DNA of 64,000 nt, taken from Tricharina praecox. Lineage: Eukaryota. Within the stretch, counting starts at the first letter, position 1; each line of letters begins with the position of its first letter. The stretch lies in the NCBI RefSeq assembly GCF_024521635.1, contig NW_026250441.1, positions 62,001-126,000 of the forward strand, in the 5' to 3' direction. A program made the translations under genes and the position numbers. Shown here piece after piece: positions 925 through 30,998 of the stretch. Below the pieces are notes generated by a model. That model saw only the letters and a list, made by a program, of their open reading frames with translations. It was not told where the DNA came from and did no database searches.

Positions 925-3900
925 ATGACCCCGCCATTCTCCTCGGCCGACCACGCACGGCCTCCCGGAATATACACGCTACTACTACCACTGCTTCTAT
1001 TGCTATGTCACGCGACTACTACCGCGGCGATGACGCCGACGCGAAAGCTCGCCCTGAGGGAGGAAGCGAGGACGATGTTTCGCCATGGGTGGGATAGTTA
1101 CTGGGAGATTGCGTTTCCGGAGGATGAAGTACGGAAGCATGTCCTATCGAGGGATGAGTAGGGATGGAAGTGTACTGACGGCGAGCTTGCGCGTGCAGGT
1201 TAAACCCCTTACGTGCATCCCGCACCACCGCGACCGCGCGAACCCGAAGGACATTGGCACGAACGATGCGATGGGAGAGTTCTCGCTCACCGCGATTGAT
1301 GCACTGAGTTCCATGGCGGTTATGGCGGCGAGTGATGAGGTGGAGGCCCAGAGGTTCTGGGAGACGGCGGAGGAGCTGGTGCGGATCTACTGGTGAGCGC
1401 TCCGTTCTGATGTCGGCTAGGGGACGACTGACGTTGACAGGTATAATAAGCCGAAAGACCAGGAGTCGGACAGGAGGAACGCGTCGTCGTCGTGGGGTAG
1501 GTTTCAAGGCAGGCACAGGAATACGCGCGGGTTCGATATCGATGCAAAAGTGCAAGTGTTTGAGACTACGATTCGCGGGCTGGGGGGACTGTTGTCGGCA
1601 CATTTATTTGCAATTGGATCGCTCCCAGGATTGCCGAAGGAATTTGAGGGGAAGACGAAGACGGGATTTGTTTACAACAACGAGCTACTGCACCTTGCGG
1701 AGGACCTGGGTCGGCGACTACTCCCCGCACTGACGAAATCGCCGACGGGAATCCCGTACCCACGGATCAACCTCCGTCACGGACTCCCGCACGGCATCAA
1801 GAACCCACGGTACTACAACCGGATCCTCGGCTGTCCGCAGTACCACCCTGATCCGGACAGCGAACCCGAGCATCCGTCTGAACGCTTCTGGCGACACCCA
1901 AATCCAAAGTCGATAAAACGGGAGCGGCCGGACGAGGAGATTACCGAGACGTGTACTGCGGGCGCGGGCTCGCTCGTGCTGGAGTTTACTACGTTGTCGC
2001 GGTTGACGGGAGATCCGAGGTTCGAGGAGGCGGCGAAGAAGGCATTCGACGCGATCTGGAGTCGGAGGTCTGCGATTGGTCTCGTTGGCGCTGGGGTGGA
2101 TGCCGAGAGCGGACTGTGGACAGGCGCGAACTCGGGGATCGGCGCGGGGGTGGATAGCTTCTTCGAGTACGCGTTCAAGAGCTATGTATTGCTAGCGGGT
2201 AATGCCGACGAGAGCTACTTTCTGGACGTGTGGGAGAAGGCGCGCACCGCGCTCGAGCGACATGTGCTCGTGCGGGAACCGGCGACGTGGTGGAACAATG
2301 TGCATGTCAACACTGGTGTGGGGATACAAGGCGGGGCGTGGATCGATTCGCTGGGCGGGTTCTTTGCCGGGACACTGTCGCAAGCTGGTGGTGCCTCGGA
2401 AGACGACGATGCTCTAGATCTAGCGGTCAAGGGAAATCTTGTCTATTCTGCGCTGTGGAATCGATACAATGCCCTTCCAGAACGGTTCAACACGCGACTC
2501 TCAACGATCGAAGGTGGCTTGTCGTGGTATCCAGGTCGTCCGGAGTTTGTTGAATCAACCTATTTACTCTACCGAGCCACTAAGGATCCCTTCTGGCTTC
2601 ATGTGGGCGAGATGGCGATGCGCGATTTGAAGCGCAGGTGTTGGGCGAGATGTGGTTGGGCGGGCCTGCAGGATGTCCGCACCGGCGAGAAACAGAACCG
2701 GATGGAGAGCTTCTGGCTGAGCGAGACGTGGAAATATTTGTTTCTCTTGTTCGATGAAGGTTGGTTGTGCCCATGTGCTTGAAGCGACATAGCTGACATC
2801 CTTCCAGCAAATCCTTTGCACACCCTCGATGCACCTTGGGTATTCACCACCGAAGGGCATCCGATCATCCTGCCACGTCCATCCTGCGTAGTTACCTCCT
2901 CTTCGCCCCCACCCCCGAGAACGTGTCGCGCTCCGCCGACGTCGTCCAGCTTTTTCTCTACTACCGCGTCTCGTCCAGATCTATTCCACGCCGCTTACTT
3001 CACCAAGCTGCACCTCTCACAGATCCCCGACTCGACCGTCTCCTCCTCCGACCCGGGCGATCTTTATGTCTCACCAACGAACTCCACCTTCTACCCATAC
3101 ACTCTCCCGCTTCACCTGATACAACCCAACGCCACTAGCGCCCCACTCCCTACCCGCGATTCGCTAGAACTCCTCTTCCCCGAAGGCTTCGCGGCTCCCA
3201 ACGGAGTGGCCACGTCCACGATCCTCTCCCGTTTCACCCCCAAGATTCAACGCGTCCCCAACGGTGTCCGGATCCTTTCGCTCAACGCGTTACGCCTCTC
3301 CCTCATCGACTCGACCGACACCGAGGCACTGCGTATCAACAAAGTCAGCGGCATCCACCTCGGCCGTGAAGAGCTCGTCTATATCTCGCGCGATCTCATT
3401 GACGGTATCAAAGACACCAACTTCGACGTCGTCCCGGACACCGAAGTCCTGGAGCTCCACCTGACCTTCCATGCCGTTCCCTCTCCGCAGGGCAACATCC
3501 TGCATGACCTCCTGAGCTTCCTCAACCCCACCGCCTCCTCATATCTCTCCTCTCTGAGCAAAGACTACGCTATCCCAGCAGTCATCTCTCGCGGCGAGGG
3601 CGCAACCCCAATCTCGGACTTCGACGCCGCCGATATATTCATTTCCTCCTCGACCGCCTGCTCCGGTCCCCTCCCCTACACCGCCCCAATCATCGTCGTT
3701 AAACGCGGCGGCTGCACTTTCGCCGACAAAATCGCCAACATCCCCGACGACCCCAGCGTGCGTCTCATAGTTGTCGAGGATTTCCTTGCCGGCACGGGGG
3801 TGGAGGGGGTTGTTGCGCCGGTTGTCGACGGGATTCAGCGGAACGTTCGGGGACACCGCACGAACCAGGTGGGACTCGTCATGGTCAGGAGTGGCGTACG

Positions 3901-12214: not shown

Positions 12215-15200
12215 TCAAACTGATACCGTCCCATGGCCATCACTACACCCGTCTTTCTCGGCGGGTATGACATCGGCTCCCTTCTCGGCAAGCAGCCGTA
12301 CCACTGCCTTGTGCCCGTTTTGCACGGCTAGATCCAGTGGCATCCGATCATCGTTATCGGCAGTTGACACTTGCGCTCCTTTCTCGATGAGCAGCCGGGC
12401 CACCGCTTCGTTCCCCGAACGCGCAGCCAGATGAAGTGGCGTCCACCCATTTTTGTGGGCGGCGTCGACGTTCGCTCCCCGTTCAACGAGCAGTCGGGCT
12501 ACTACATCTAGTACCTTCTCTAATGCCCGATACAGTGGCGTCCGCCCATACTTATCGGCAACAGAGACATCGGCTCCATTTTTAACAAGCAGCCAAGCCA
12601 TCGACGAGTCCCCCAGTTGCACAGCCAGATGCAGCGACGTCAACCCGCCTTCATCGCCGGCCGAGACATCAGCACCATTCTCGACGAGCAGCCGGGCCAA
12701 TGCCTCGTCTAGCACATCATGGCCACGTGCAGCGGTGTCCGCCCGCTCGTGTCGGCGGTTGAGACATAGGCTCCGGGCCATCGATACGTCCCTCTGTTGC
12801 ACGGCCAGATGCAGCGACGTAAACCCGTCTTTATAAGCGGTAGACAGATCGGTCCATTTCTTGACGAGCAGCCGAGACACAAAATCTAGGTTGCTCGCTA
12901 ACAGTGTTCTCCATAGTCCGGTCCGGACTGCAGTCTAGACAGGACGGCCTGCCAAGATCTAGTCTCATCCGTAACTTTTTGTGGATGGAATAAAAGTAGT
13001 CCGTCCCGTCCGCCAATTTTCAAGACGGGGTTGGACTGCAGTCGACTCCAGTCCGGTAGTGAAAACAAATGCCACTATTTTCAGCACTTACCCCACGAAC
13101 TTTGATAGTATTCCCCACTCTGGTGTGTTCAATTCCGTCCAGTACCAGCAAAACCGTGAGCGGCGACACCACCTTCGTCCCGCACCAGTACGTCCGCGCC
13201 ACAATCTTCGTCCAGTAGCAATAATCTGCGCCACAATCTGCGCCACAATGTTTGTTTAGTACCATGAACGCCGCGCCGTAATCTTGAGCCCATGCGCATA
13301 TGCTTCCCTCAGCCACTATAACCGCCGATAATATGCCGCGGGCTTTCTATCGTGATTTCTATCGCCTTGCACTAGTCTTGGCAGTCGATTGCAGTCCGTC
13401 CCGTCCGACCATACTGGTGGACTAGTCCGTCCGACAGACACCTCCTGACGGACTGGATGTATGTAGTCCAGTCCAGTCCGAGGCTCAGGGCGGGCGGATT
13501 GGACTATGGAGAACACTGCTCGCTAATGCTAGACAAAGTAGCATCTGCCCATCGTTATCGACGGCTGAGACGTCGGCTTTGTTCTCGCCAGAGAGCCGAG
13601 CCACCGCCTCGTGTCCGTTCTAGACGAGCAGCTGAGCCACCGCCTCGTGTCCTTTCTCCCATGCCCGCTGCGAGGACATCATCCCGTCGTTTGTAGCCGC
13701 CGAGCTTCTCCCATCTGTGATCCGGGTTGAGAGATCTACTCCCTTCTGAATGAGCAGCCGGGTAACCGCCTCGTGCCCCCTTTCTACTGCCCTATGCAGC
13801 GGCATTCTCCCATCTTTGGTAGCGAACGAGATCTTGGCTCCATATTCGATGACCAGCCGGACCAGTGCCTCGTCGCTCATCTCCGAGGCGCGATGCAACG
13901 GGGTCCAACCCTCGTGGTCAGTGGCGGAAACGAAGGCCCCACGTCTAGCAGCTTACGGAAAAGATCCACGTCTCGTAATCTGCACGCGTGGTGAAGTAAC
14001 TGGTTGATTCGTGGCATCTCCAATGGTTTGGATTTGAATACACTGGTAAACCTCCGCTTGAGCCCGAATATTCAAACCGAGGCAAGTACGTTGTTTCTTA
14101 CACGGTGTATTTCTATGGTCCTTTTCCAAAACATGCTTCTGGCGGGTCGCCACATAACTCTCCTGCCATGATATTCACGCCATCGTTGGTAGTTTGCCTC
14201 TGACATGAATGAATCCCAAAGAGGAGTCAACATTTCATCTTCGCAATGGCCGAAATGCCACAGCCAAAAGACCGCCGAGTATATCAAAAAGTGGCGACCG
14301 AGATACTGCCCTTCACTTGTAAGGCTAGTTCTGTCGTAATCAATCCAAGAGTCCGAACTGCAGAGGAGCGAGGGGCAGGCTCTCGCGATCTGGGTATGGG
14401 AGTCGATCTTGCGCAGCCGTGTCTCCACGTATTCGTCGACGGAAAGATACGCAAACCGGAAAACGTCAAGATCTTTGTCCAGGACTAGCAGATTCTGACA
14501 AGCCTTTAACAGGTCGTTCGCATTAACCGACAGATCGTGCGAAAAGCCACCCCGGCAGTCGACCTCCGCCATGATCGCATCGAGCAAGGTTTTGCATTAA
14601 ATCAGCTCGTGGGAAGACTGAATCCCCCGGGACGCATTTAGTGCAAACCGCGAAGCGCTGCCTTTCTGCGTGAGAATGCGCTGGGAGGTTTCGTCGTACG
14701 CAGCGGTGAGGATTTCCGGTAGCACCTTGAGACTGGGTCTTACGTCGTTTTGCGTGGCCATATCGCAGAGAAAGGCGATCTGAAGTGCGGCTAGTTGTAA
14801 CCTGAACCGTCAGTTTCTCCGCTTATAAGTGACTGGAGTAGTTACGGTAAACGTACATTCCCTTGGATCGCTGACGAAGGAGGTTGCATATATCGGCTTG
14901 GAGCCCAGGACACCATGGACTAGTCACTCCTCGTCAATGGCCATCTGAACATTGCTTTCTATAAACTCGTTGATGTCGCCGACATTGTCATCAGGTTGCA
15001 ACTCGATGCGGGGAAACATCGCAAGCTGCAGCAGAATATCAGTGTCCATTCGGGTGGTTGCAAAGATCTTGACGAAATTCTTCGATTTTTCGACGACATA
15101 CTTCAACGACTTGAGTAAATCTATCCGGACTTTGCTATCGACTTCGTCCAAGGCATCAATGCAAATTGCCGTCTTCAAATATATGTAGGTTAGTCAAACA

Positions 15201-20409: not shown

Positions 20410-21931
20410 AGCTGCCCATCTAGATGCCTACGCAGGGGGCTGATACATATTACTCTATGTACTCTACTAAATACGATGTCCTGATTTCGAGAACCATACA
20501 TATGAGAACGTGAAGCGACATCTGCTTGCGGTCCTCCAAAGTACTGGGACTAAGTCGTACAGATACTGTTACGTAAGTAAAAATGTGTGAGCAATCGCGA
20601 GCTCATAGCGGTACATATGTAGGAGAATAAGCTATCGATCTTGCCGACTAACGTGGTGCGGTTGAAATTGATTTTGTCTTGCAATCATGCATAAATTCTA
20701 CAAGCACAAGACAGATGTCACTCTTTCACGGGGCGGGGCCATTGAACGCCGCATGGACGGATGGGGGTACTCTAGTTGAACGTCACCGCCACGTTGTCGC
20801 CGTGAATAGCCGAGTAACTATTATCATATGTCGGCATGTTTGTGCTCCACTCCGCCATTGCAGAATCTAGATTGACACTGACGCAACGATGTGTGTCTGT
20901 TTGACGACCTCCCCGCACCGCGTCACCGAATCACGGACCGTGGCATCCGGGAGCCGTGGAGTGCGCTATCCGCAATCGATAATGACCCGTCACCCTCTCA
21001 TCGCGTGGTTCCGTTGTAATCGTTGATCCCTTGCGCTAGGGAGGAGCGGGAAGCTAGAATACATCTTTAAGAAGTTCAATATCGGCAGCGGATGGATTCA
21101 ACCCCCATTGGCTGCTCGTGGCTCTTGTCAAATCACTGAGTGGGGGGGAGGGCTCAGGAAAATATATTTTCACATAAGCCATGCTAAGCGATGGCATGCC
21201 GCATAGCTCACCTCGCGGATGGCTAAGATTGTCTTGCATGGTGCGTTTACCGTGGTCAAGAATAGCTCAAGCTGCGAAAAACAGACGTATCACCCCACCG
21301 ACCACTCCAACACTGCCATCGCCCTGTGCTGTGGGACACGAGACAGCTGTACCAGTTGACGATGGTGAATGGCCCGTCTGGCCAGCTGGCCGGTTTCAAA
21401 CGTATATACCTCCCGAGTTGCTACACGTGGCGGCGAGGATGCTGATAGAAGTCGGGACGGCGCGATGGTCCGAGGAATGATCGATATCAGTGGTGGTGAA
21501 AAGAGTACTCTACATACGCTGTTGCTCTTCCATATTGCTGCCGATAGGCTGCTGATGGATGCGGTAACGGCGCCAGCACATCTGCCAAGTCACGCTGTGC
21601 TTTTAGGTAAGCCACATGAACCCGATGTTCTTCCGTACATAGGTAAGCCAATAACTGTTGCGGCAAAGGTGAATCATTGATGCCCTCGACGAGGCAATCT
21701 AGAGACTCGGGCATTCGTCAGAGGTCTTCGCCATACACACCCACAGACTAGAAAGAATTATTGTCAGAAAACCGGGGTCACCTCAGCCGAAAACCTAAAA
21801 GAGGGTTGCGAGGCGGGGATTCGGGGCATCCCTGGTTCCTTCAAATATTCGCCCTTCGCTCAAGGACGGTTTACTTCAACTTTATCGACAACAACTGCTT
21901 CTTCAACTTTATCGAAAACAACTGCTTCCCG

Positions 21932-24900
21932 ATGTCAAAACGCCAGAAATCCGACCACCATACGCGAGCGCCTCCGCCAGTGCCAAGTGTCAGGCTATCC
22001 GGTGCGACACCGTCCACGCACCCAACAGACTCTAGTCGCAGGTACCAGGGTACCACACACTTGGAGTTTAGGGGAGGGGAGTTTCATGGCGGGCAGAACT
22101 TCTATTCCAACGGGTGAGTCTCGGGACTACGTTTGGAGATCGCATATTCTACTTAGTTCGAGTAGAGTGGATTTAAGGATGGCTAACCGGAATTCGCTAG
22201 CAGTTCCGACAGTAAGCGACGTTGCTCGATCAAAAACACTTTACTACCCTCCTGGAACTAACTTTGAGCTTTAGCCCCCGAGTCGAAATGTTTGCGCTGT
22301 CTCTACACTTCCGACTATGAATCCCACAAGGACAGAAACCCTAAGCGAGTGGATGGAACGCTTGAATGGTTTCTCCGTCACGAAAAGTATCGGCACTGGC
22401 AAGAAAAAGATTCGAGTCTTCTATGGGTGACGGCAGATCCGGGATGCGGAAAAACCATGCTGGCCGCATTTCTAGTGGACGAGCTGAGTGTCCACTCGGA
22501 ACCTCGCGACACCGTCTGCTTTTTCTTCTTCAAAGATGACAATCAGGAACAGAAATCTGCGACATTGGCTCTTTCCGCCCTCCTCCACCAGCTCTTTTCG
22601 GCGAAGCCATTCCTTCTCCGGCATTCCTTGAAAGATTACAACGACAAGGGCGCGAAATTTACAGAACAATTCGGTACGCTGTGGCGCATCTTCCGGGCAG
22701 CAACCACCGACCCGGACTGCGGCAATGTCATTTGCATCATCGACGCTTTGGATGAATGCGAAGAATCGACTCGAAAGTCCCTCATCGATTCTTTAGTCAG
22801 CAGCTACACACCAGCGATCGGCACAGGGCGCAGCACGGGCGAAACGCTTCCAAAATTCATCCTCACCAGTCGCCCATACGGCTCCATCGAAAAACAATTC
22901 GGTACACAACTTATCAGATTGAAAGCGGAGGAGCAAACACCCGCCATCAGCGAAGACATTGAGCGTGTCATCGATTCCGAAGTTGAGTTGCTGGGGAATG
23001 TGTGGCACCTCACTGATGACGACCGGATAATTATCCGAGACAAGCTCATCCGGGGCGCCGATCATACATTCCTGTGGGTTTCCCTGATTGTCAAAATCCT
23101 CCACGGTAGTCAAGCAGCTTCGCGGAGGAAATTCCTTCAAACTCTCAACAGCCTACCGAGTAACCTCGAAAGCGTCTACGAAAAGATCCTTGAAGATATT
23201 TGTGACCGCGAAGAGGCCAAACGGATTCTCCAAATAGTCGTCGCGGCTACACGACCCCTCACACTCGACGAGATGGACATCGCACAAGCGATTCAGCGGG
23301 ATCACAAATCAATCGAGGACCTCCAGCCGTGCCGCCTGTACTCCTTCGAAAGCACGGTGAAGAACACATGCGGACTTTTCGTGAAGGTCATAGACTCGAA
23401 GATCTACCTTATCCACCAAACGGCGAAGGAGTTCCTGATCAAGGGCACAGCTACCGCCACATCTGCTACGGAAATTACCACGTGGAAGCAATCACTTTGT
23501 CCTATCGAATCAAACCTCACCCTCGCGAAGAGTTGCCTTTATTTTCTCTTGTTTAATGTCTTTGAAACCCACCCTCTGGCACTACGAGCGCAGGGATCGG
23601 ATATAGATGGCTACACCATAGGGCATGTGTTTTTAGATTATGCAGCTAAAAATTGGACGGCTCACGTCCAAGAGGCCAAGATATGGGAGGATGAGAAACT
23701 CTCCGCTATTGCGTTGAAGGTTTACACGAGTGGGTCGGGGCGGCTGCTGACATGGTTCCAAGTTTACATGGCGAGCAACTGTGAGTATTGGAACTTCGAT
23801 AACATGAGTGGGCTTGCAGTAGCATCATATATTGGTCAGGATGCGGTGGTGGAGCTGCTAATAGAACAGGGAGAAGACGTCAACAGTGGCCGTAGCCTAT
23901 ACAACAATGCTTTGAATGTGGCTGTTCGAAAGCGAAATAGGAATGTGATCATGTTGCTGCTCAACAGAGGAGCCATTGTCTTTCTATTCGGAAGTGAATA
24001 TTGGAACCTTTTAGAGGTTAACAGATGTCTTTCCCTTTCCATGACTGAAACCAGAGCTAATAGTTTGCTTATATCGTGCCATAGTCTGTAAGTAGAATTG
24101 CTAGTTGGCAAAAGCGTCTCTCTGATAAAAGACTGACATTCGTGGCCACTTTCCGACAGCGAGTATGAACACTTCCTCCTCCCTACAAGCGCTGGGAGGG
24201 ATCGCTGACATTCATCCCGTTTCTGTCACAGCGGGTGACCTGACCTATTTCACCCCTCCAGTCGAGGTGTACCGCTGACAGTGAGCGCTGTGCGCCTCAT
24301 AGACGGTATGATGCGTATCGTTATACCTTCCTTACTCTCGACTGCACTGACCTTCGGGCACGATGGGAGAAACAGGATGTACGTAAAGCTGATGGCAATT
24401 CGCTATTCTTCGACGACAGTGCTGACACTGACGAACGACTATGATAGTTTGTGAGTGGGCGAGATAGATGCTCATTACCCACGGCAAACATAACGGACAG
24501 CTGACCTCGGGGTTGTTTGTGATGGTAGCGGGTAGACACTCATATTACTCAGCCTAGATTGAGTAAGGAAACAAGACTAACATTGAGTTTCCCATCGAAA
24601 ATAGAAAGTGAGTGCGAGGAATGGGCCTGTTTTGGCTCCTAGAGACTATACGGCTAACGTTCGGTCCACTTTGCAATAAAGTGGGTAAATGAAATAATGA
24701 GGGTCCGTCTACTACATTAAGAGTGTATCACTGATTGTCGGTTCCTGGGGAACGAAGACCGTGAGTGAACCAAATCACTTGGGTGTGCCTCTCCACATGG
24801 CTGACTTTCGGATCGCTTTGCTTTGCAGGAAGTAAGTGAACCAAATCACTTGGGTGTGCCTTTACACATGGCTGACTTTCGGATCGCTTTGCTTTGCAGC

Positions 24901-27900
24901 GCGTAAGTGAACCACATCACTTGGGTGTGCCTTTCCACATGGCTGACTTTCGGATCGCTTTGCTTTGCAGTGGGTAAGTGAACCAAATCACTTGGGTGTG
25001 CCTTTCCACATGGCTGACTTTCGGATCGCTTTGCTTTGCAGGAAGTAAGTGAACCACATCACTTGGGTGTGCCTTTCCACATGGCTGACTTTCGGATCGC
25101 TTTGCTTTGCAGATTGTAAGTGAACCAAATCACTTGGGTGTGCCTTTCCACATGGCTGACTTTCGGATCGCTTTGCTTTGCAGGAAGTAAGTGAACCACA
25201 TCACTTGGGTGTGCCTTTACACATGGCTGACTTTCGGATCGCTTTGCTTTGCAGCGCGTAAGTGAACCACATCACTTGGGTGTGCCTTTCCACATGGCTG
25301 ACTTTCGGATCGCTTTGCTTTGCAGTGGGTAAGTGAACCACATCACTTGGCTGTGCCTTTCCACATGGCTGACTTTCGGATCGCTTTGCTTTGCAGCGCG
25401 TAAGTGAACCAAATCACTTGGGTGTGCCTTTCCACATGGCTGACTTTCGGATCGCTTTGCTTTGCAGGAAGTAAGTGAACCACATCACTTGGGTGTGCCT
25501 TTCCACATGGCTGACTTTCGGATCGCTTTGCTTTGCAGCGCGTAAGTGAACCACATCACTTGGGTGTGCCTTTCCACATGGCTGACTTTCGGATCGCTTT
25601 GCTTTGCAGATTGTAAGTGAACCAAATCACTTGGGTGTGCCTTTCCACATGGCTGACTTTCGGATCGCTTTGCTTTGCAGGAAGTAAGTGAACCACATCA
25701 CTTGGGTGTGCCTTTCCACATGGCTGACTTTCGGATCGCTTTGCTTTGCAGGAAGTAAGTGAACCACATCACTTGGGTGTGCCTTTCCACATGGCTGACT
25801 TTCGGATCGCTTTGCTTTGCAGGAAGTAAGTGAACCACATCACTTGGGTGTGCCTTTACACATGGCTGACTTTCGGATCGCTTTGCTTTGCAGCGCGTAA
25901 GTGAACCACATCACTTGGGTGTGCCTTTCCACATGGCTGACTTTCGGATCGCTTTGCTTTGCAGTGGGTAAGTGAACCAAATCACTTGGGTGTGCCTTTC
26001 CACATGGCTGACTTTCGGATCGCTTTGCTTTGCAGGAAGTAAGTGAACCACATCACTTGGGTGTGCCTTTCCACATGGCTGACTTTCGGATCGCTTTGCT
26101 TTGCAGATTGTAAGTGAACCAAATCACTTGGGTGTGCCTTTCCACATGGCTGACTTTCGGATCGCTTTGCTTTGCAGGAAGTAAGTGAACCACATCACTT
26201 GGGTGTGCCTTTACACATGGCTGACTTTCGGATCGCTTTGCTTTGCAGCGCGTAAGTGAACCACATCACTTGGGTGTGCCTTTCCACATGGCTGACTTTC
26301 GGATCGCTTTGCTTTGCAGTGGGTAAGTGAACCACATCACTTGGCTGTGCCTTTCCACATGGCTGACTTTCGGATCGCTTTGCTTTGCAGCGCGTAAGTG
26401 AACCAAATCACTTGGGTGTGCCTTTCCACATGGCTGACTTTCGGATCGCTTTGCTTTGCAGGAAGTAAGTGAACCACATCACTTGGGTGTGCCTTTCCAC
26501 ATGGCTGACTTTCGGATCGCTTTGCTTTGCAGCGCGTAAGTGAACCACATCACTTGGGTGTGCCTTTCCACATGGCTGACTTTCGGATCGCTTTGCTCTG
26601 CAGTCGGTACGTGAACCAAATCACTTGGGTGTGCCTTTCCACATGGCTGACTTTCGGATCGCTTTGCTTTGCAGATTGTAAGTGAACCAAATCACTTGGG
26701 TGTGCCTTTCCACATGGCTGACTTTCGGATCGCTTTGCTTTGCAGGAAGTAAGTGAACCACATCACTTGGGTGTGCCTTTCCACATGGCTGACTTTCGGA
26801 TCGCTTTGCTTTGCAGGAAGTAAGTGAACCACATCACTTGGGTGTGCCTTTCCACATGGCTGACTTTCGGATCGCTTTGCTTTGCAGGAAGTAAGTGAAC
26901 CACATCACTTGGGTGTGCCTTTCCACATGGCTGACTTTCGGATCGCTTTGCTCTGCAGTCGGTACGTGAACCAAATCACTTGGGTGTGCCTTTCCACATG
27001 GCTGACTTTCGGATCGCTTTGCTTTGCAGATTGTAAGTGAACCAAATCACTTGGGTGTGCCTTTCCACATGGCTGACTTTCGGATCGCTTTGCTTTGCAG
27101 GAAGTAAGTGAACCACATCACTTGGGTGTGCCTTTCCACATGGCTGACTTTCGGATCGCTTTGCTTTGCAGGAAGTAAGTGAACCACATCACTTGGGTGT
27201 GCCTTTCCACATGGCTGACTTTCGGATCGCTTTGCTTTGCAGGAAGTAAGTGAACCACATCACTTGGGTGTGCCTTTCCACATGGCTGACTTTCGGATCG
27301 CTTTGCTTTGCAGGAAGTAAGTGAACCACATCACTTGGGTGTGCCTTTCCACATGGCTGACTTTCGGATCGCTTTGCTTTGCAGGAAGTAAGTGAACCAC
27401 ATCACTTGGGTGTGCCTTTACACATGGCTGACTTTCGGATCGCTTTGCTCTGCAGTCGGTACGTGAACCAAATCACTTGGCTGTGCCTTTCCACATGGCT
27501 GACTTTCGGATCGCTTTGCTTTGCAGGAAGTAAGTGAACCACATCACTTGGGTGTGCCTTTACACATGGCTGACTTTCGGATCGCTTTGCTTTGCAGCGC
27601 GTAAGTGAACCACATCACTTGGGTGTGCCTTTCCACATGGCTGACTTTCGGATCGCTTTGCTTTGCAGATTGTAAGTGAACCAAATCACTTGGGTGTGCC
27701 TTTCCACATGGCTGACTTTCGGATCGCTTTGCTTTGCAGGAAGTAAGTGAACCACATCACTTGGGTGTGCCTTTACACATGGCTGACTTTCGGATCGCTT
27801 TGCTTTGCAGCGCGTAAGTGAACCACATCACTTGGGTGTGCCTTTCCACATGGCTGACTTTCGGATCGCTTTGCTTTGCAGGAAGTAAGTGAACCACATC

Positions 27901-28696
27901 ACTTGGGTGTGCCTTTCCACATGGCTGACTTTCGGATCGCTTTGCTCTGCAGTGGGTAAGTGAACCAAATCACTGGGCGTGCCTTTCCACATGGCTGACT
28001 TTTGGCCGGCCTTCCAATATACAGGAGGTAAGAAAACCTGATCACCCGAACCTCCCGTGACATTCATCTGACCATCGCCTCTCTTTGCGTCGCGGAAGGT
28101 AAGTGAACTGAAGCACCATGCATGTGTGACGCCGGTAGGAAAGTACTGAAATATGGGCTCCGGTTTCGCGCAGATTGTAAGCTCACTTCCTTTGAATGCT
28201 GTTCACTGTGCCCGGCGGTTGGCTCACATTGGCTTGACTTTCTTCGCAGGCGGTAATTGAACCTCCTCGCCGTGATGATCATTGACTGATACTATCTGCC
28301 TTTCCCCCTGGCCTTTTACGTCTTAGAAAGTACGTGACTTGTTCTATGATCCTCTTTGCTTTGTCGGTGCTAATAAAAGGTATCTGATGTCTCAGTTTGT
28401 ATGTATCATTCTTTCGGTTCATTCCGTCTGCGCCACAATTGATCGGTCTGTTGCTAACACACGGTAGCTGGTAAGTAATATGTTCCCATCCGCGCGTCGT
28501 ACTGTGGTGCTAACGTACGGCTGATTGATTTCCGCAGGAAGTAAGTCTTTTCGCTCAGGGCCCTTTTCTTTCTCGGAGCTGTTACCGACTGTAGGCTCTT
28601 CTTGGCCTCTAGGAGGTAAGTGGGGTCTTTTTCTGGTTGCTAGTCGTTTATTTGTCATCGTTGACCTTTTACCAGTTTTGCCTTGATGATGTTTGA
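21932..28696 (+). CDS. fungal NLR-like NACHT-ankyrin protein with a C-terminal tail encoded by about 63 three-nucleotide micro-exons
   Basis: Exons 21932-22113, 22201-22211 and 22275-24016. The third carries Walker A ADPGCGKT, Walker B CIIDALDEC, GADHTFLWV, LIHQTAKEFL, LDYAAKNW and about 2 ankyrin repeats. Then 3-nt exons between canonical introns from 24085 to 28615, and a terminal exon 28676-28696 (FCLDDV*). Confidence 0.88.
24761..28024 (+). repeat. 71-bp tandem array = 68-nt spliceosomal intron + 3-nt micro-exon; 45 full units plus one partial
   Basis: Unit GTAAGTGAACCAMATCACTTGGGTGTGCCTTTMCACATGGCTGACTTTCGGATCGCTTTGCTTTGCAG + NNN, with donor GTAAGT, branch GCTGAC, a pyrimidine tract and acceptor CAG. 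Micro-exons fall at 24829 + 71n (n=0..44). Confidence 0.95.
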
Positions 28697-30046: not shown

Positions 30047-30912
30047 CATCAGACCCGAGCCGTGTGCTGTGATTGCTGCTACACACAGTGCTCTCCTTGC
30101 GACTGTCTACATACATTATATGCAGATTCCTCCGTCGTCCCTAAGGTTCTTTCGATTCCCGCCGCTTCACGACTTCTTCGGCGGAGTGCTGCGCATCACT
30201 CATGAGCGACATGGCATTCCGCGCGTGAGCATGAAAAGGTCACATACATACCGAAGCGATGATCCACGCCGCAGTCGAGGAACGTTCAATCGGCTTGCTA
30301 GAAATCTCGCGATCGTTACTACTAGGTGTACACTGGACGACTGATTTCCCATGGTGGCGTGTGGACGGATGTGTCGAAAGTGCGTTCGGGGGATGGAGGC
30401 GTACACAATCGCAGGATACAACAACGGTAACGGCAACGGCAACGGCATCACAGTTCACCAAGCCGGTATACCATCTCCCATGACCCGTGAGAGACCGAAA
30501 CCAAGTCCGTTTTGCGTCAGGGGTTATGTGAGTACTTATCGGATGTAGAACTACAACCCAATCCTCCAACCCTCAGCGCGCCCGCCCAAGCTCCAAGTTC
30601 CAACAGCGCAGTCCTGCTCGCATGATATGTTTACATAACTACCTGCACGCGATGACTGGGGCCCGGTTAAGTACCGAGATGCGAGATGGCTCCGCCACCG
30701 CAGCTCCGCTGCAACGTGCCGCTACTCCCGCCGCTACTCCCGCCACTATATACCCCCGCGGCCGCTCACCCCGGTCGGGAATAAAGGATTTGCACCTTGT
30801 GCCTGCAGACGCCGTGCTGCTAACTAACTACTCACCGGCGGTCAGCCTACGGGTACTTGCTACTATCGATAGATAAGTAGATAAGTAGGTACGTAGGTAC
30901 CGGTAATGATGT

Positions 30913-30998
30913 CGGGACTCCGAACTCGGAGCCGGGACTCGGGACTCCGGACTCGGGAGTTGGAGATCGGGACTCCGGACTCGGGAATCGGGACTCGG
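30913..30998. repeat. short degenerate tandem repeat of about 7 bp (GGACTCS)n
   Basis: Repeated GGGACTC/CGGACTC units. Confidence 0.7.

Follow-up and report, generated by a model that had tools for sequence, protein, structure and literature searches.

How can the C-terminus of a receptor be encoded in DNA in which one short intron follows another with only three nucleotides (nt) between them? This question is raised by a locus in a 64,000-nt stretch of Tricharina praecox DNA (Pyronemataceae, Pezizales; contig NW_026250441.1, positions 62,001 to 126,000 of the forward strand). The whole stretch is called the window here, and all coordinates of the locus are those of the window. Judged by its sequence, the gene is a NACHT-ankyrin NOD-like receptor (NLR) of the nank type. 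The reading which we consider likely is that this receptor carries a 69-residue tail made from 63 phase-0 exons of 3 nt each and a last exon of six codons, and that the underlying units of intron and codon are turned over at the DNA level.

The coordinates and triplets of the chain were obtained with a script that walked GT..AG-NNN-GT steps from 24017, and the tandem array was delimited with Tandem Repeats Finder (TRF). The chain is entered by a GT..AG intron directly after the codon GAG at 24014-24016. Across 24017-28675, 64 short GT..AG introns spaced by exactly 3 nt were found, which gives 10 + 45 + 8 = 63 micro-exons. The parts of the chain are the following.

24017..24760, plus strand: first divergent block, 10 introns of 68-78 nt, each followed by a 3-nt exon (script walk and RNA).
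24685..24757, plus strand: intron 10, GTAAAT..GAAG, with weak sites and a stop at 24718-24720 if retained.
24761..27955, plus strand: tandem array, 45 units of a 68-nt intron and one codon (script walk, TRF and RNA).
27956..28615, plus strand: second divergent block, 8 introns, each followed by a 3-nt exon (script walk).
28096..28098, plus strand: dead micro-exon within the 146-nt intron 28028-28173 (sequence read directly).
28616..28675, plus strand: 60-nt last intron, GTAAGT..CCAG; its retention would preserve the frame and bring in no stop.
28676..28696, plus strand: last exon, 21 nt, six codons for FCLDDV and TGA at 28694-28696.

The triplets of the first block are, in order, TCT, CGA, CGG, ACG, GAT, TTT, CGG, AAA, TGG and ACC (exons 24085 to 24758), and those of the second block are GAG, ATT, GCG, AAA, TTT, CTG, GAA and GAG (28025 to 28613). 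An earlier note on this DNA had listed the same 63 exons from the letters alone, and every coordinate and triplet in its list was reproduced by the script walk. By TRF, the array extends over 24764-28002 with a period of 71, 45.6 copies and 94% matches. Its introns are 68 nt long in 45 cases out of 45, and its codons are 21 GAA, 10 CGC, 6 ATT, 5 TGG and 3 TCG. The range of 60-78 nt that had been given for the introns holds for most of them and fails for intron 28028-28173, which measures 146 nt and contains the dead micro-exon; the latter has a GTAAGT donor behind it, and the AG of its acceptor is changed to GG. Of the 63 introns with a micro-exon behind them, 58 have a CTRAY branch motif at a distance of 22-26 nt from the acceptor, and introns 2-63 start with GTAAGT in 45 cases and end with GCAG in 48 cases out of 62.

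Chains of this length do not arise in shuffled DNA. In 50 shuffles of the remaining window the longest chain had 3-7 steps, compared with 56 + 7 in the real sequence, or 63 with the long intron allowed. The same chain scan found no second micro-exon chain elsewhere in the 64-kb window. It had also been pointed out that none of the 63 triplets is a stop, which is correct, but this carries no weight as coding evidence because stops are rare at AG-NNN-GT sites. Elsewhere in the window 9 of 430 such sites hold a stop triplet, and 63 stop-free triplets are therefore expected with P ~0.26.

At the 3' end, two extra steps of the walker (160 and 161 nt) appeared after 28613 when introns of up to 199 nt were allowed; they have no branch motifs and were treated as chance. 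The last exon at 28676-28696, with the end FCLDDV and a stop as originally proposed, is preferred over these steps because a homologous last exon exists in a relative from metagenome contigs (locus L001, described below). If the last intron 28616-28675 were retained, a 20-residue, mostly hydrophobic segment would be inserted before the last six residues. The homologue of this intron in L001 carries a stop, and the stop-free state of 28616-28675 may be chance.

Evidence that the triplets are spliced comes from two sequencing runs, X1 and X2 (two studies, with organisms coded A and B), the reads of which were assembled to contigs and placed on 21000-24831. Both runs are taken to be RNA, though they are not recorded as such, because the depth jumps at the exons of the gene and many partly spliced forms are present. 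Upstream of the gene the word depth is 3-27, and on the exons it reaches ~1430 in X1 and ~900 in X2. The main contig is 2225 nt long at depth 1429 in X1 and 2252 nt long at depth 899 in X2, with no other letters, and in both runs it joins 21669-22113, an 8-nt exon and 22275-24016. After 24016 both runs continue with TCTCGACGGACGGATTTTCGGAAATGG, which is the series of nine triplets from TCT to TGG in the predicted order. The joints 24450->24529 (TTT to CGG) and 24607->24682 (AAA to TGG) are both of the GT..AG type. Furthermore, the joint 24450->24682 was found with CGGAAA between its ends, and the joint 24306->24529 with ATTTT. Over micro-exons 1-10, all the listed junction observations, which comprise these four joints and the loose ends at 24162, 24375 and, in both runs, 24016, are collinear with every triplet included. 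Behind 24761, after ACC, the loose end of an X1 contig with unspliced intron 10 reads AACGCTGGGAAATTGAACGCTGGCG, which corresponds to array triplets 11-19 in genome order. In another X1 contig GAG (28025) follows directly on TGG (27953), the final triplet of the array, and the contig then runs into the start of intron 28028. In total, at least 20 of the 63 micro-exons are spliced in RNA as predicted. The triplets are real exons, since the spliced contigs of both runs read them in order.

Read-through into intron 1, the way in which the public gene model ends, is minor (depth 57-68 against 1429). Contigs drop rare variants, and contig depth is a poor measure of abundance. Moreover, a fully spliced continuation would consist of 3-nt pieces only and would not be placeable as a contig, so that the depths give no share for full-length molecules. 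The X1 loose end at 24375 differs in one letter from the window (GGTACC instead of GGAACC near 24005), which could be due to a paralogue, an allele or an error.

Upstream of the chain, the gene is composed of the following parts.

21607..21668, plus strand: intron in the 5' untranslated region, 62 nt, GT..AG (both runs have the joint 21604->21667, "cut +2", in their main contig).
21669..22113, plus strand: first coding exon, with ATG at 21932 and a low-complexity N-terminus of ~60 residues (RNA with no other letters in both runs).
22204..22211, plus strand: 8-nt micro-exon between introns 22114-22203 (90 nt) and 22212-22274 (63 nt).
22275..24016, plus strand: main exon, with NPHP3_N/NACHT NTPase, winged helix and about two weak ankyrin repeats (Pfam and contiguous RNA contigs).

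The frame of the start codon at 21932 has an in-frame stop upstream. The 8-nt exon, TTCCGACA, sits inside the joint 22113->22275 in both runs and is flanked by CAG and GTAAGC. In the main exon, Pfam matches were obtained to NPHP3_N (2.8e-39, 135 bits, cut-off 24.8) and to the winged helix GPIID_WHD (1.1e-6, 29.4 bits), together with a NACHT match slightly below its cut-off of 26.7 (7e-6, 26.4 bits) and an Ank_2 match below its cut-off of 27.3 (2.5e-4, 22.0 bits). The last 70-100 residues of the open reading frame (ORF) align with the ankyrin-repeat regions of relatives, and the final repeat is cut short. The exon ends inside this repeat with ..GSEYWNLLE, which aligns with ..GxYGNALQ of the relatives' repeats. 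The conceptual coding sequence 21932-28696 comprises 713 residues, of which 69 belong to the tail, a string of low complexity rich in E, R, I and W (24 E, 13 R, 7 I, 6 W). The N-terminus encoded by 21932-22113 had no Pfam match. Its 60 residues are of low complexity and include a G/N/Q/F-rich stretch immediately before the NACHT module, and Tuber nank proteins are N/G-rich at the same place. According to a passage of PMC9815663, a Tuber-specific amyloid-like motif occurs in five near-identical NLR sequences of T. melanosporum.

The best named match of the predicted protein is a T. praecox hypothetical protein (513 aa) that is 100% identical in every long aligned block, so the window holds the locus of this public model. 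The model differs at the N-terminus, lacks several internal segments, among them a part of the NTPase region, and runs out at the read-through stop 24089-24091; the expectation that gene finders miss such a structure was borne out. The RNA contradicts the model, because 22275-24016 is one uninterrupted exon and the start is at 21932. The next matches are proteins of Wilcoxina, Sphaerosporella and Trichophaea (Pyronemataceae) with 61-62% identity. Among 124 retrieved family proteins, 17 end by read-through directly after the homologous residue, and models from Tricharina, Sphaerosporella and Trichophaea are among them.

A precedent for this design is found in the black truffle. In passages of four later papers (PMC9815663, PMC4986451, PMC3689799 and PMC13449251), the nank family of Tuber melanosporum is reported to contain alternatively spliced mini-exons of 3 bp, tens of them (Iotti et al., 2012, Fungal Biology 116:261). 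The earlier note had named this precedent, and it is borne out by the citing passages and by five deposited cDNA-derived variants (AFB35594-AFB35598) that differ only in their tails. These variants are identical up to ..GRDYSVLY and then diverge; variant 1 is without the last three residues of this motif, and a single residue near the start of the tail separates variants 4 and 5. The T. melanosporum "NACHT-ANK domain protein transcript variant 5" matches the T. praecox protein with an E value of 1.4e-129 and 40% identity over 98% of the query, and the "NACHT-ANK domain protein transcript variant N" proteins of Tuber and Choiromyces show 40-44% identity. The tail starts at a homologous place, because ..GRDYSVLY aligns with ..GSEYWNLLE of the window. 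The two genes have in common a homologous protein, the domain order, with ankyrin repeats that score below the Pfam cut-off in T. praecox, a tail start inside an ankyrin repeat and tens of codon-sized exons. They differ in family (Tuberaceae in one case and Pyronemataceae in the other), and alternative splicing of the mini-exons is reported for the Tuber nank, whereas in T. praecox skipping is one of two possible readings of a single RNA string. The T. praecox gene is another instance of the design known from the black truffle, in a different family of Pezizales.

Four features described below go beyond the citing passages, namely the conservation of the array intron, the hypervariability of the codon, the conserved ends of the tail and the abundant retention of intron 10; the Tuber paper may cover some of them. 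A passage of a 2026 paper (PMC13449251) terms the Tuber nank mechanism lineage-specific, and a 2024 abstract states that functional micro-exons were not described in filamentous fungi. Literature searches for a micro-exon chain design outside Tuber returned only citations of the Tuber case, and the genome paper of Pyronema confluens contains 0 occurrences of micro-exon or mini-exon.

Relatives of the gene were sought by a scan of metagenome contigs, which returned 80 loci; in 11 of them the alignment extends as far as the last residues of the ORF. In six of the 11, further ankyrin repeats follow. In the other five (L001, L002, L005, L006 and L009; 50-64% identity) the ORF ends with ..N[LI]LQ followed by GT, and a micro-exon chain stands directly behind this point in every case. 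The chains contain the following numbers of micro-exons, three of the five running into the contig end.

L001: 103-105 micro-exons.
L002: 37 micro-exons.
L005: 19 micro-exons.
L006: 34-35 micro-exons.
L009: 31 micro-exons.

Every true locus carries an array of its own; the modal intron lengths are 80, 80, 68, 69 and 78 nt, and the array of L001 has 85.6 copies. At the entry of the tail, triplets 5-9 read DFRKW, DFREF or HFREW (DFR/HFR-x-W/F) across the loci, and the arginines of this motif are encoded by synonymous codons among loci (CGG/AGG, CGA/AGA). The exit is marked by IA-x-[FY]-L in the last triplets. In the window and in L001 the last exon starts with FCL, a similar last exon is present in L006, and L001 also has a short last intron homologous to 28616-28675. 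The middles of the tails differ among loci, being E/R/W/I-rich, P/D/E/T-rich or W/S/D-rich. Across these predicted tails, both ends are conserved and the middle is not.

A distant NACHT-ankyrin locus, L070 (36% identity; 2829-3840), has 11-15 micro-exons after a complete ankyrin repeat, and its introns are 78 nt long and all end with ATAG; the third codon position is invariant (T). L070 could represent an old branch of this design or an independent origin of it. Some other candidates were rejected. Chains of 7-13 in L042, L053, L058 and L059 are an artefact of the 99-nt coding period of ankyrin repeats. The chain of 10 in L007 lies upstream of its match, has no uniform intron length and includes a stop triplet, and the other 7-long chains in relatives are within the chance range. 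Just downstream of the micro-exon gene of L001, the segment 20330-20560 resembles, on visual inspection, the RNase H portion of a retroelement.

In the window, the array has 10 intron haplotypes, with 7 of 68 intron positions variable, and the pairwise difference per site is 0.018 in the introns compared with 0.687 in the codons. One intron haplotype precedes TGG, ATT, CGC and GAA alike. Exact repeats of 759 nt at an offset of 14 units and of 417 nt at an offset of 5 units were observed, and such exact repeats at whole-unit offsets show very recent duplication of units. Across six loci, 40 of the 68 positions of the array intron are invariant; they include the 11 nt at the start (GTAAGTGAACC) and the greater part of the final 31 nt with GCTGAC and GCAG. 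Over the last 300 nt of the ORF, the loci are only 51-66% identical. In these alignments the array intron is better conserved than the coding sequence. When the 71-83 positions of a unit are ordered by entropy, the codon positions take ranks 1-3 in the window, L001, L002 and L006, and ranks 1, 2 and 5 in L005. A conserved RNA stem between the donor and the region behind the branch point was considered, since minimum-free-energy folds hint at one, and was rejected on z-scores of +0.33, -0.88, +0.65, +0.38, +0.44 and +0.91 against shuffles for six array introns.

We hypothesize that the array intron would function as a self-sufficient splicing unit, having a perfect GTAAGT donor, a GCTGAC branch 24 nt from the GCAG acceptor and a fixed length. 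With such self-sufficient introns, recognition intron by intron could leave a single codon behind. The near-identical introns would at the same time be a substrate for unequal crossing-over or gene conversion, by which whole units of intron plus codon could be added, deleted and reshuffled. Because the exchange would concern whole units, the reading frame would never be shifted. The dead micro-exon 28096-28098 shows how a codon can be lost in frame. Selection would act on the codons and not on the intron middles, and together with unit turnover it would make the tail centre fast-evolving, variable in length and low in complexity. This variable centre would be held between the entry motif ..DFRKW.. 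and the exit motif ..IAKFLEE plus FCL... Splicing would add heterogeneity at the RNA level, where retention of weak introns is seen and skipping of micro-exons is possible. The variability documented here lies at the DNA level (array duplication and codon hypervariability) and in intron retention. By analogy with other NLRs, the tail is probably the recognition or autoinhibitory end of the receptor, and its "sensor" role is something that we infer from NLR architecture.

More tentatively, with confidence that falls slightly short of even, we suggest that arrays of intron-plus-codon cassettes are an old, conserved and frameshift-proof generator of diversity in the NLRs of Pezizales. A dedicated, conserved array intron would serve as the substrate of recombination and would then be spliced out. 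Crossing-over would only add, remove or reorder whole codons, and these codons would be under diversifying selection between two conserved tail motifs. Weak-intron retention, perhaps with skipping, would be a second, somatic layer of variation. Moreover, the origin of the design would lie before the divergence of Tuberaceae and Pyronemataceae, and the gene models of many sequenced cup fungi would miss it.

Several points weigh against a translated tail of 63 triplets with unit turnover. The spliced contigs cover micro-exons 1-19 and the junction from TGG to GAG, and a full-length mRNA that runs through the middle of the array and 28030-28696 to the FCLDDV exon at the 3' end is a prediction. 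Most of the steady-state RNA may encode a tail that is cut before the array, because contigs retaining intron 10 (stop at 24718) reach ~75-80% of the depth of the main contig. In all five relatives the third codon position varies less than the other two, which fits selection on the amino acid or equally a splice-site constraint before GT. In the window, the array has only five codon types and no synonymous variants, so its diversity comes from a few founder units that were duplicated and not from many independent changes. This near-perfect 3.2-kb array could also be mis-assembled in copy number. Finally, the metagenome relatives may be paralogues from few species, and for this reason the six loci are not six independent lineages.

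It was proposed at the outset that the variation is mainly somatic, i.e., that any subset of the 63 phase-0 triplets can be skipped and one locus gives a combinatorial library of tails. We regard this as unlikely. Its premise stands, since every triplet is in phase 0 and skipping is frame-neutral, and the near-identical introns give many equivalent pairings of donor and acceptor. The five T. melanosporum variants, which all have different tails and include a pair one residue apart, point in the same direction. In X2, the string after ACC is AACGCCGCATTGAAGAAGAATGGG, which is contiguous nowhere in the array of the window and requires at least two skipped blocks (triplets 13-20 and 26) if it is placed there. 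However, a different array allele in organism B explains this string as well as skipping does, because the intron start that adjoins it is absent from the window: a second X2 loose end with the same non-collinear string enters an intron start with 0 matches there. The full, collinear inclusion of micro-exons 1-10 and the genome order of array triplets 11-19 in X1 also count against such a library. As the contigs drop rare variants, a library is neither affirmed nor denied by them.

Distinctly less probable is the view that the array is largely untranslated and forms a spliced 3' untranslated region behind the stop 24718-24720, in which case it would be a neutrally expanding satellite that perhaps feeds nonsense-mediated decay. 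The retention of two introns with weak sites speaks for it. Contigs that retain intron 10, with downstream array triplets already spliced, reach depths of 1140 against 1429 in X1 and 670 against 899 in X2, so that this retention appears abundant. Intron 8 (24532-24604, GTAGAC..ATAG) is also retained, at depth 537 in X1 and 238 in X2, or 27-38% of the main contig; in both cases the neighbouring introns are removed. The very recent expansion recorded in the exact 759-nt repeats and the non-significant absence of stop triplets would suit a satellite too. On the other hand, neutral expansion would not explain why the exonic positions are the most variable ones in four independent arrays, why the exit motif and the FCL last exon are conserved behind arrays that differ in length and composition, or why the array intron is better conserved than coding sequence. 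Furthermore, the main contig ends exactly at the branching between TGG and intron 10, which implies a second continuation. Retention of introns 8 and 10 gives early stops and may represent a regulated truncation of the tail.

A chance pattern, pseudogene or assembly artefact with unspliced triplets can be dismissed almost entirely: tandem repeats can multiply an accidental AG-NNN-GT, and ankyrin coding DNA did give false chains, but spliced RNA contigs of two runs read the triplets in order, 18 micro-exons are flanked by introns that diverge from one another, no shuffle exceeds 7, and homologous chains are present in six other loci.

The preferred reading, a codon-by-codon tail with turnover of units in the DNA, can be compared with other systems. 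The WD40, ANK and TPR repeats of high internal conservation (HIC) in fungal NLRs are described, in passages of PMC9815663 and PMC13449251, as diversified by unequal crossing-over with few positions under positive selection. Like the array of T. praecox, they stand at the C-terminus of an NLR, consist of near-identical DNA units, vary at few positions and show recent unit duplication. The HIC unit is a folded protein repeat of 30-40 residues, whereas the unit here is a 68-nt intron plus one codon, of which the conserved part is spliced out and only the hypervariable part is translated. Podospora HNWD is an example of HIC repeats.

Micro-exons of 3-30 nt are described for animals and plants, e.g., the neuronal micro-exons and the 3-bp micro-exon of homothorax. 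They resemble the exons found here in that they go down to 3 nt, are in frame and are routinely missed by annotation and aligners. However, they are single cassettes between long introns in exon-definition genomes, while 63 micro-exons are placed head to tail between 66-78-nt introns in the intron-definition fungus studied here. The micro-exons of animals and plants are regulated by dedicated splicing factors. The introner-like elements of fungi, which are near-identical introns multiplied across the genome, are similar to the array in providing many near-identical short introns with optimal signals, but the copies here are strictly tandem in one gene. For three motifs of the array intron, 42-46 occurrences were counted inside the chain and 0 in the rest of the 64-kb window on both strands, so that the window shows no introner-like dispersal. 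With Dscam1 of insects, where whole-domain exons are chosen in a mutually exclusive way, the locus shares the idea that one locus gives many receptor forms through splicing. Regulated choice among whole-domain exons is a feature of Dscam1, in contrast to the 3-nt exons here.

The present data extend the codon-exon tail design from one truffle species to another family of cup fungi, where public gene models of NLRs are cut off at the micro-exon entry site. They also give a testable picture of array evolution, in which the intron scaffold and the tail ends are conserved and the codon is hypervariable. For the spliceosome, the handling of dozens of consecutive 3-nt exons is an extreme natural test case.

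In the surroundings of the gene, a strong ankyrin-repeat ORF (Ank_2, 8.6e-36) lies at 12218-12934 on the minus strand, 9 kb upstream, and the other neighbours in the window are GH47, an amino-acid permease and GH115. A 27-nt direct repeat is present in two copies in the 5' untranslated region of the gene (21874-21928), and a degenerate 7/28-nt repeat is located at 30912-30998, 2 kb downstream of the gene.

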